Below the pieces are notes generated by a model that was not told the origin of the DNA, ran no database searches, and saw only the letters and a list, made by a program, of their open reading frames with translations. A program made the position numbers and the translations under genes. This document shows positions 48,506 through 51,665 of a stretch of 64,000 nucleotides of DNA, piece by piece. This stretch comes from Escherichia phage ECO4. Numbering within the stretch: the stretch's first letter is position 1; each line of letters begins with the position of its first letter. The DNA lies in sequence record NC_054911.1. The stretch is one strand, 5' to 3'.

Positions 48506-49521
48506 CATTATGTTCAGATAAGGTCGTTAATCTTACCCCGGAATTATATCCAGCTGCATGTCACCATGCAGATCAGACTATATCTCCAACTTGTTAAAGC
48601 AAGTTGTCTATCGTTTCGAGTCACTTGACCCTACTCCCCAAAGGGATAGTCGTTAGGCATTTATGTAGAACCAATTCCATTTATCAGATTTTACACGATA
48701 AGTAACTAATCCAGACGAAATTTTAAAATGTCTAGCTGCATCTGCTGCACAATCAAAAATAACCCCATCACATGAAATCTTTTTAATATTACTAGGCTTT
48801 TTACCTTTCATCTTTTCTGATATTTTAGATTTAGTTATGTCTGAATGCTTATGATTAAAGAATGAATTATTTTCACCTGAACGATTTCTGCATTTACTAC
48901 AAGTATAAGCAGAAGTTTGTATGCGAACACCGCACTTACAAAACTTATGGGTTTCTGGATTCCAACGCCCGTTTTTACTTCCGGGTTTACTGTAAAGAGC
49001 TTTCCGACCATCAGGTCCAAGTTTAAGCATCTTAGCTTTAACAGTTTCAGAACGTTTCTTAATAATTTCTTCTTTTAATGGATGCGTAGAACATGTATCA
49101 CCAAACGTTGCATCAGCAATATTGTATCCATTAATTTTAGAATTAAGCTCTTTAATCCAAAAATTTTCTCGTTCAATAATCAAATCTTTCTCATATGGAA
49201 TTTCTTCCAAAATAGAACATTCAAACACATTACCATGTTTGTTAAAAGACCTCTGAAGCTTTATAGAAGAATGGCATCCTTTTTCTAAATCTTTAAAATG
49301 CCTCTTCCATCTCTTTTCAAAATCTTTAGCACTTCCTACATATACTTTATTGTTTAAAGTATTTTTAATCTGATAAATTCCGCTTTTCATAAATACCTCT
49401 TTAAATATAGAAGTATTTATTAAAGGGCAGTCCTACAATTTAGCACGGGATTGTCTACTAGAGAGGTTCCCCGTTTAGATAGATTACAAGTATAAGTCAC
49501 CTTATACTCAGGCCTCAATTA
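48506..49521 (-). mobile_element. group I self-splicing intron in td (1016 nt)
   Basis: 5' junction TTCTTGGGT|TAATTGAGGCCTGAGTATAAGGTGACTTATAC and 3' junction ACATAATG|CTT recognised as the T4 td intron; carries I-TevI. Confidence 0.9.
48653..49390 (-). CDS. I-TevI intron-encoded GIY-YIG homing endonuclease
   Basis: 245 aa; N-terminal GIYQIKNTLNNKVYVGSA... GIY-YIG domain. Confidence 0.9.
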   Translation of the reverse strand: MKSGIYQIKNTLNNKVYVGSAKDFEKRWKRHFKDLEKGCHSSIKLQRSFNKHGNVFECSILEEIPYEKDLIIERENFWIKELNSKINGYNIADATFGDTCSTHPLKEEIIKKRSETVKAKMLKLGPDGRKALYSKPGSKNGRWNPETHKFCKCGVRIQTSAYTCSKCRNRSGENNSFFNHKHSDITKSKISEKMKGKKPSNIKKISCDGVIFDCAADAARHFKISSGLVTYRVKSDKWNWFYINA

Positions 49522-50070
49522 ACCCAAGAAAACATCTACTGATCGTTGATACCACTGCAAATCCAAATAGCCATTACGCACATTAAACTGATAGAACATA
49601 TGACAGGGCGGTAATGCCATTTGATTGATTTCAGCTGGATTCCATGCAGAAACAATTTGACGCCTATCATTTGGCAGTTTTTTAATACGATCAATAACTT
49701 CTATAATTTGATCTACACCGCCAAAATCACGCCACTGTTTTCCATAAATTGGACCAAGTTCACCGCTATGGTATCCTAAATCTTTTGCTTGATTTTCGTA
49801 ATTTTCATCCCAGACTGTTTTGCCTTGAATTAATGAATCGTGCTGAATTAATCGTAAATCATTGACATTTGTGCTTCCTGATAAAAACCAAAGCAGCTCA
49901 GCAATGCAAGCTTTCCAGGCGAGCTTCTTAGTTGTTACCGCAGGAAAACCTTTAGTTAAATCCCAGCGTAATTTAGTACCAAACAAAGCAATTGTTCCTG
50001 TGCCTGTTCGGTCATCGGTTTCATAGCCATTTTCAAAAATGTCTTTAATTAAATCTTGGTATTGTTTCAT
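49522..50070 (-). CDS. td: thymidylate synthase, exon 1
   Basis: 183 codons ending ...QRSVDVFLG; exon 1 plus exon 2 give 286 aa. Confidence 0.9.
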
Positions 50071-50115
50071 TTAGTACCTTATATAAATTATAATACATTT
50101 TATGAAGCTAAATAA

Positions 50116-50463
50116 TCAATACGGTTTAGCATCAAATTTTCTCTCAATTTCAGGCGTGAAATATAATTCTTTACCGCGTTTGGAAAAGCGACCAATAATA
50201 TGATAATTATTCTCATCAAACGTGATATTACCAATATCCATAGCTTTCAACCAAATATCGATATTTCTATCCAGCTTTATGTCAAAATTCCAATACGGAG
50301 AACTATTACCGAAAATACTACAAGCGGATTCAGTGAAACAACTGCTATAAATCTTGTCTTTAGGAACTACTAATTGATAGACACCTTTAATAAACTGAGG
50401 ACCCTGCCACTTTGGCTGTTTCTCATCTTTTTCTAATAGAATAGGGTAATAATTAAAATTCAT
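50116..50463 (-). CDS. hypothetical protein inserted between frd and td
   Basis: 115-aa ORF, ATG 20 nt after frd stop; no motif recognised. Confidence 0.55.
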   Translation of the reverse strand: MNFNYYPILLEKDEKQPKWQGPQFIKGVYQLVVPKDKIYSSCFTESACSIFGNSSPYWNFDIKLDRNIDIWLKAMDIGNITFDENNYHIIGRFSKRGKELYFTPEIERKFDAKPY

Positions 50464-50482
50464 ATTTCCGCCGCGCGTTATT

Positions 50483-51305
<823 letters not shown>

Positions 51306-51321
<16 letters not shown>

Positions 51322-51665
51322 TGAAAGGGGCCAGAAGCAAATCCGCTATCTTTAATCATTTTAACTAAAGTTACCATTCCTCTGTTAACTGCTTGCGAGA
51401 TTTCATCAAAAACTTCATCACTATCACCATAAAGATCGCTAAAAAGTTCTAACACGTTCTTCTGAACTTTTAATTTACAGCCAACAAATTCGCCTACAGT
51501 AAATTCGTTTCCGCCAACTCCAGCGTAAAACGTAATTACACCAGTTAATGGTCTTTCACTAGAACATAGGTCGTGTGATAAATTAATATAAGCCGTCCCG
51601 GGTGCAGTTTTAAGTTGGCAACGAATACTTACTCGAGCAATTCCAGCTACACGAATGTCAGACAT
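51306..51665 (-). CDS. hypothetical protein (frd.2 position)
   Basis: 119-aa ORF. Confidence 0.5.

Follow-up and report, generated by a model that had tools for sequence, protein, structure and literature searches.

A 115-aa open reading frame (ORF) between frd and td of Escherichia phage ECO4 is probably an early accessory gene that is native to this slot and was lost in T4, and its product would act as a host-specific fitness factor, probably a binding factor in counter-defence. A probability of roughly 0.55 is assigned to this explanation. The ORF was analysed in the window, a stretch of 64,000 nucleotides (record NC_054911.1) from a Tequatrovirus whose best genome matches over 24 kb are 96-99% identical. 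Its sequence is already known, having been annotated since RB32 and RB51 and catalogued as a PHROG; nothing on the ORF was found in the literature, and a 2010 review of T4 genomes does not mention it. The present analysis reverses the insertion story to a loss in T4, defines the family together with its motif and tandem paralogues, supplies a confident structural model that lacks a known structural neighbour, and links the gene to a host-specific phenotype that had gone undiscussed. T4 is the reference of the group, and genes lost by T4 therefore tend to be overlooked.

Position and anatomy of the ORF

The first-pass annotation had placed an ATG-initiated ORF of 115 aa at 50116-50463 between frd and td, and the ORF listing agrees with it exactly. 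The protein begins MNFNYYPILLEKDEKQPKWQGPQF, and the ORF, frd and td are all co-oriented on the minus strand, with a gap of 19 nt from frd to the ORF and of 45 nt from the ORF to td. The end of the frd stop codon lies at 50483 and the td ATG at 50070-50068, as given by the ORF listing and the sequence. The features of the locus are as follows.

50483..51064, minus strand: frd (dihydrofolate reductase), the upstream neighbour, whose translation aligns with the annotated Frd of other T4-like phages
50478..50489, minus strand: left direct repeat TAAATGAAATAA, with 9 exact bases, TAAATGAAA, spanning the frd stop (repeat search)
50464..50482, minus strand: 19-nt spacer AATAACGCGCGGCGGAAAT from the frd stop to the ORF ATG (read from the sequence)
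50116..50463, minus strand: 115-aa CDS, stop codon included, a member of PHROG 1928 / RB32ORF229c and ortholog of bas37_0070
50071..50115, minus strand: 45-nt A+T-rich spacer from the ORF stop to the td ATG (sequence)
50062..50073, minus strand: right direct repeat TAAATGAAACAA, spanning the td start (repeat search and T4 alignment)
50074..50489, minus strand: 416-bp segment missing from T4 (T4 alignment; start-to-start spacing of the repeats 416)
49519..50070, minus strand: td exon 1 frame, the downstream neighbour, extending to the first stop within the intron (T4 and Bas37 annotation)

The 416-bp segment is thus made up of one repeat copy, the 19-nt spacer, the ORF and the 45-nt spacer, and its edges are ambiguous inside the repeat. 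In the 19-nt spacer, a GGA located 4 nt 5' of the ORF ATG may serve as a weak Shine-Dalgarno-like site. The same spacer contains a G+C-rich run, CGCGCGGCGG, which is atypical for this A+T-rich genome. The 45-nt spacer provides td with its own AAGG ribosome site at 50077-50080, which is absent in T4. A promoter-like TTGATT-N18-TATTAT at 50119 to 50090, with 9 of 12 consensus matches, is also absent in T4; a promoter and terminator scan around the ORF returned no more sites than expected from shuffled sequences. A candidate MotA box in the 45-nt spacer was discarded, since its fit, judged by eye, was poor.

A conserved gene family

Judged from sequence comparison, the ORF is a real, conserved and syntenic gene under purifying selection. 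It differs from its T2 counterpart by 15 synonymous changes and one non-synonymous change (dN/dS 0.012), and dN/dS amounts to 0.13 both against a 66%-identical relative and between two metagenomic relatives. Between the ORF and bas37_0070, there are two synonymous and two non-synonymous changes, with a protein identity of 98%. The product matches PHROG 1928 with an E value of 3.1e-36, residues 4-111 aligning to positions 2-125 of the 126-position profile. The hypothetical proteins of this RB32ORF229c / PHROG 1928 family in T2, T6, RB32, RB51 and Bas37 are 93-100% identical, lie at the same position and are flanked by the same repeat, and the family is catalogued with no known function.

A word-indexed protein search retrieved three relatives, or nine with a profile, and HMMER added about 30 more clusters. 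The exhaustive HMMER profile search of 1.84 billion representative proteins gave 42 matches, 40 of them genuine, and the profile built here reached 27 representative clusters at an E value of 1e-10 or better. The genuine matches are standalone short phage proteins, about 95-140 aa long, or fragments thereof; the two long matches, a YadA adhesin and an ankyrin protein, were discarded as repeat artefacts. By these searches, the family is confined to T4-like phages. A profile scan of all ORFs of the window revealed no paralogue. The impression that the protein has no recognisable motif was borne out, as searches of Pfam, NCBIfam, PADLOC and PDB sequences gave no match with either the single protein or a 44-member profile, and the PHROG 1928 match brings no function with it.

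Conserved residues and predicted structure

The product is a mildly basic protein of 13.7 kDa. Alignment of 44 family sequences showed that W19, G91, K95 and G97 are invariant and that G27, Y29, F93 and F102 are conserved in at least 90%, which defines the family motif W19 ... G-x-Y ... G-N ... G-R-F-x-K-x-G ... F-x-P, present in full in the window protein. Conservation in the family is confined to aromatic residues, Gly and Lys, and the proteins have a median pI of 8.7. Among the 44 sequences, not one Cys, His, Asp or Glu position is conserved, and the window protein has one His and two Cys.

An AlphaFold2 model based on the 44 family members reached a pLDDT of 90.1 and a pTM of 0.83, against a pLDDT of 76.6 with only 10 sequences. 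The predicted fold consists of one alpha-helix and several beta-strands in an OB-like strand order; the likeness of the model to OB-fold domains (HIN, Teb1, Cdc13, S1, RPA and PriB) remained below significance. Remote homology search and structure prediction, both proposed at first pass, have yielded family membership and a confident model, but no match among PDB sequences or known domains. Given the lack of conserved Cys, His, Asp and Glu and a conserved set of aromatic residues, Gly and Lys, an enzyme is unlikely, and the product is most likely a binding protein.

Orthologs in MZ501089, MZ501106, MZ501113, MZ501067, OK272473, OK274152 and OR125554 carry the conflicting labels 'putative homing endonuclease', 'dihydrofolate reductase' and 'putative glucose-1-phosphate adenylyltransferase', none of which is backed by any profile search. 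The first of these, given in GenBank to Bas37 and related phages of the BASEL records, would make the ORF a freestanding homing endonuclease, and its patchy distribution between conserved genes does recall the seg and mob genes, which likewise sit between conserved genes and vary among close relatives. Unlike seg and mob genes, however, the ORF has no nuclease motif, is half their size and keeps its locus from genus to genus, with purifying selection acting strongly on it. No GIY-YIG, HNH, LAGLIDADG or other nuclease profile of Pfam or NCBIfam was matched at E values up to 10, the few His and Cys residues are not conserved, and its 115 aa compare with 245 aa for I-TevI in the same window. The homing endonuclease was rejected for lack of a motif, and its probability is considered negligible.

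Probable loss of the gene in T4

The T4 reference has no gene between frd (145109-145690) and td (143235-145112), which overlap by 4 nt, in agreement with the first-pass annotation, and the absence of the ORF is seen in both the T4 annotation and the alignment. Pairwise alignment of T4 with the window around the junction displayed a single difference, one block of 416 bp. The T4 junction keeps exactly one copy of the repeat, which is why the frd TGA and the td ATG overlap there. T4 is well known to undergo deletions between short direct repeats. In the proposed event, 416 bp would have been lost between the two TAAATGAAA repeats, fusing the frd stop to the td start, and the stop-start overlap of T4 is best read as the scar of this deletion. 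In the RB51 record, the ORF already has the name RB32ORF229c and is described as 'flanked by 9 bp repeat'. The junction of RB69 (Mosigvirus) is empty and overlapping like that of T4.

Junctions were compared across T4-type genomes, as had been suggested at first pass, and the ORF was found in about two thirds of Tequatrovirus records and in the same slot elsewhere. A 601-bp query of the region had matches in 535 phage records, and in 357 these covered at least 80% of the query. By tblastn, the protein was located in 580 records, of which 361 show an identity of at least 90% and 219 one below 60%. The carriers include T2, T6, RB32, RB51, AR1, wV7 and BASEL phage Bas37 (KarlGJung). When 60 evenly spaced matches were sampled from the 513 of a T4-junction query, the flanks lay about 416 bp apart in 40, the uninterrupted T4-type junction occurred in four (about 7%; T4 isolates, vB_EcoM_112 and HY03), and the frd side alone was matched in 16. 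At least one record of this last class besides Yersinia phage fPS-2, namely phage a48, still has the 115-aa ORF. In fPS-2, the space between frd and td is taken by a 68-aa ORF (MSNKLKVKDVPNAMALF...; L009:2598-2804) that overlaps both genes, gives no Pfam match and is unrelated to the 115-aa family. The slot, which corresponds to 50071-50482 of the window, thus has at least three alleles.

Outside Tequatrovirus, at least eight T4-like genera have diverged homologues in the frd-td slot. In Kanagawavirus, Jiaodavirus, Roskildevirus, Moonvirus, Winklervirus and Muldoonvirus, these are directly flanked by the genes for DHFR and thymidylate synthase, homologues near frd or td were also found in T4-like phages of Proteus, Morganella, Providencia, Yersinia and Salmonella, and two metagenomic T4-like contigs carry the gene right after DHFR and before thymidylate synthase. 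The window ORF shares its frd-td position with all related loci that were inspected, including seven in other genera. Six genera were viewed in detail, and in each of them the gene overlaps frd and td stop-to-start with no spacers. In other genera, the ORF product is 27-47% identical to that of the window, compared with 39-54% for Frd and 77-85% for Td, so that the ORF has diverged roughly in step with Frd. Moreover, several genera hold two genes in the slot (L005:1059-1493 in Cronus, L006:1787-2134 in Moon, L003:1826-2185, L007:1814-2188 and L013:4332-4673). The second gene of Cronus and Moon is a tandem paralogue of the PHROG 1928 family, with hhalign probabilities of 99.0% and 99.7%, respectively, and represents a 'long form' in which a PTIxEYK-type insertion follows the conserved Trp.

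The claim of an extra gene wedged into the junction had to be turned around. Considering the same-slot homologues across genera, their Frd-like divergence, and the two thirds of carriers against some 7% of empty junctions, T4 appears to hold a derived, deleted allele; the clean 416-bp gap of T4 between repeats and the empty junction of RB69 also fit loss better than gain. The family would accordingly be native to the frd-td slot and the empty junctions of T4 and RB69 would be losses, a choice between loss and gain that was made from distribution and co-divergence.

The opposite course would be recent mobile cargo, a cassette that entered a T4-like ancestor at the frd/td junction and duplicated 9 bp of target, and the direct repeats of 9-12 bp around the segment, the seamless junctions of T4 and RB69, and the polymorphism of the slot with its unrelated 68-aa allele in fPS-2 are all compatible with it. 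Such a cassette is nevertheless hard to reconcile with homologues that keep the same position and a Frd-like divergence in at least eight genera, nor does the start-to-stop overlap with frd and td in other genera leave any cassette borders. No transposase, integrase, nuclease or other mobility protein and no meaningful inverted repeats were found, and the repeat itself is the shared ..TAAATGA.. stop/start context of frd and td, which equally permits deletion. Recent insertion was rejected on the strength of the synteny across genera and is regarded as very improbable.

Host-specific requirement of the Bas37 ortholog

The ortholog in Bas37 (MZ501089) is bas37_0070, and a saturated transposon library of this phage was competed on several hosts in the HIDEN-SEQ preprint (10.1101/2025.11.20.689424). 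In the K-12 library, 34 of the 36 TA sites of bas37_0070 carried insertions (0.944) and the gene was classed as 'Non-essential' (10.1101/2025.11.20.689424). The bas37_0070 row was taken from every table of Extended Data Table 7, where CFT073, CFE299, CFE303, CFE331 and CFE336 are uropathogenic strains (10.1101/2025.11.20.689424).

K-12 vs CFT073: log2FC +0.40, adjusted p 1
K-12 vs CFE299: log2FC +0.18, adjusted p 1
K-12 vs CFE303: log2FC -0.09, adjusted p 1
K-12 vs CFE331: log2FC +0.16, adjusted p 1
K-12 ΔRM vs cloned Mokosh type I: log2FC +0.02, adjusted p 1
K-12 vs CFE336: log2FC -4.62, adjusted p 0.00000

On CFE336, the mean count of bas37_0070 fell from 372.4 to 14.1 (p 0.00000), and the gene is one of 10 significant genes of that table (10.1101/2025.11.20.689424). 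In the first two thirds of the table, which are the rows covered, only beta-alpha-glucosyltransferase (-7.70) and pseT (-7.58) were depleted more strongly, and srd (-3.44) and cef (-3.37) came next (10.1101/2025.11.20.689424). The neighbouring genes were not depleted (frd +0.37, td +1.5, I-TevI +1.2; 10.1101/2025.11.20.689424), which makes a polar effect unlikely and renders the requirement independent of phage thymidylate and folate synthesis. This requirement derives from one transposon-pool comparison in a preprint supplementary table, and the CFE336 table contains jackpot noise in other genes, such as +5.1 with p 0.62 (10.1101/2025.11.20.689424). The main text of the preprint mentions neither bas37_0070 nor Lamassu, and no 'delta70' mutant appears in its text or supplements.

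Because the gene is dispensable on laboratory E. coli and its ortholog is strongly required on CFE336, a host-specific fitness factor is the most direct description, and non-essentiality on K-12 combined with strong depletion on one strain in a pooled screen could reflect counter-defence or a difference in host physiology. The first-pass suggestion of accessory or anti-defence cargo therefore gains from the depletion of a K-12-dispensable ortholog on CFE336, whereas the picture of cargo is given up. Counter-defence by binding is favoured by the company of bas37_0070 among the CFE336 hits, the patchy presence in close relatives, the third allele of the slot, and the lack of a catalytic signature. 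Most probably, the product would bind and neutralise an immunity component of CFE336 or mask the trigger of this component, and counter-defence would then be the reason for the CFE336 requirement. Counter-defence genes identified in the same HIDEN-SEQ screen are NrdC.1 of T4, which acts against Septu, and Bas37_0203, which acts against Druantia III; like the ORF, they are small early domainless genes that the phage can do without on K-12 and that were depleted on just one uropathogenic isolate, and NrdC.1 also lies among nucleotide-metabolism genes. They have no sequence relation to the ORF, and their defence systems were identified with clean knock-outs, whereas the ORF is known from a pooled screen.

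A different explanation is that the gene serves a function, such as replication, nucleotide supply or RNA handling, for which K-12 and most strains do not need it but which is limiting in CFE336, with no immune system involved. The data show only strain-specific depletion with no defence pairing, all genera examined have the gene within the nucleotide-metabolism cluster and co-transcribed with it, and an OB-like strand order is found in many nucleic-acid-binding proteins. A thymidylate or folate requirement is nevertheless argued against by the undepleted frd and td mutants, the other CFE336 hits are classic counter-defence or modification genes (beta-alpha-glucosyltransferase, pseT, cef and srd), and presence in some close relatives but not in others is what arms-race genes typically show. 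Host dependency is deemed unlikely.

The synteny could also point to an auxiliary subunit or regulator of Frd/Td or of the dNTP complex, with the CFE336 signal as an artefact of the pooled screen; stop/start overlap in six genera is an arrangement that often marks co-functioning proteins, and the jackpot noise of the comparison, for which no follow-up was reported, would allow for an artefact. Against such a partner, insertions in the gene were tolerated on K-12 (mean count 372) when those in td (29-31) and frd (117) were costly, T4 and RB69 live without the gene, and chance would hardly produce a depletion that extends across 36 TA sites and spares the neighbours. The cofactor was rejected because frd and td mutants differ from ORF mutants on both K-12 and CFE336, and it is held to be rather improbable.

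The counter-defence reading can be carried further. The only CFE336 system that the authors selected and cloned is a predicted Lamassu-Cap4 nuclease (10.1101/2025.11.20.689424), and no pairing of Lamassu-Cap4 with bas37_0070 is reported in the preprint. The T4 data sets cover neither CFE303 nor CFE336, and extra factors turned essential on strains that T4 does not infect (10.1101/2025.11.20.689424); on these grounds, T4, which is devoid of the ORF, presumably does not grow on CFE336. It is conceivable, though on balance doubtful, that the ORF founds a new counter-defence family with a fold absent from the PDB that stoichiometrically neutralises a CFE336 immune system, for which Lamassu-Cap4 is the obvious first candidate, and that the T4 deletion is one reason for the failure of T4 on such strains. 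The undiscussed CFE336 signal makes this anonymous ORF a testable candidate determinant of host range or counter-defence, with relevance to the choice and engineering of T4-like therapeutic phages and to finding the opposed defence system.

Additional observations around the locus

On the other side of frd, the interval to frd.1 contains two more ORFs that are absent in T4, both on the minus strand. The one at 51064-51321 encodes 85 aa without a Pfam match, and the one at 51306-51665 encodes 119 aa with a DUF7247 match (E 1e-29). The frd-frd.1 gap of T4 is short, so that T4 seems to hold the shorter allele on that side of frd as well.

The td gene of the window contains a group I intron with I-TevI (245 aa, GIY-YIG) at 48653-49390 on the minus strand, as in T4; in T2, the 115-aa ORF is present and td is uninterrupted. 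About 550 bp separate the frd/td junction from the td intron site, which is the I-TevI homing site, and intron homing could therefore co-convert the allele of the slot. In the HIDEN-SEQ tables, where bas37_0068, bas37_0069 and bas37_0071 are the td, I-TevI and frd ortholog rows, insertions in td (both exons) and I-TevI were enriched on several uropathogenic strains over K-12, with log2FC of about +1 to +2.6, suggesting that loss of the phage thymidylate synthase is apparently less costly, or even beneficial, on those hosts.
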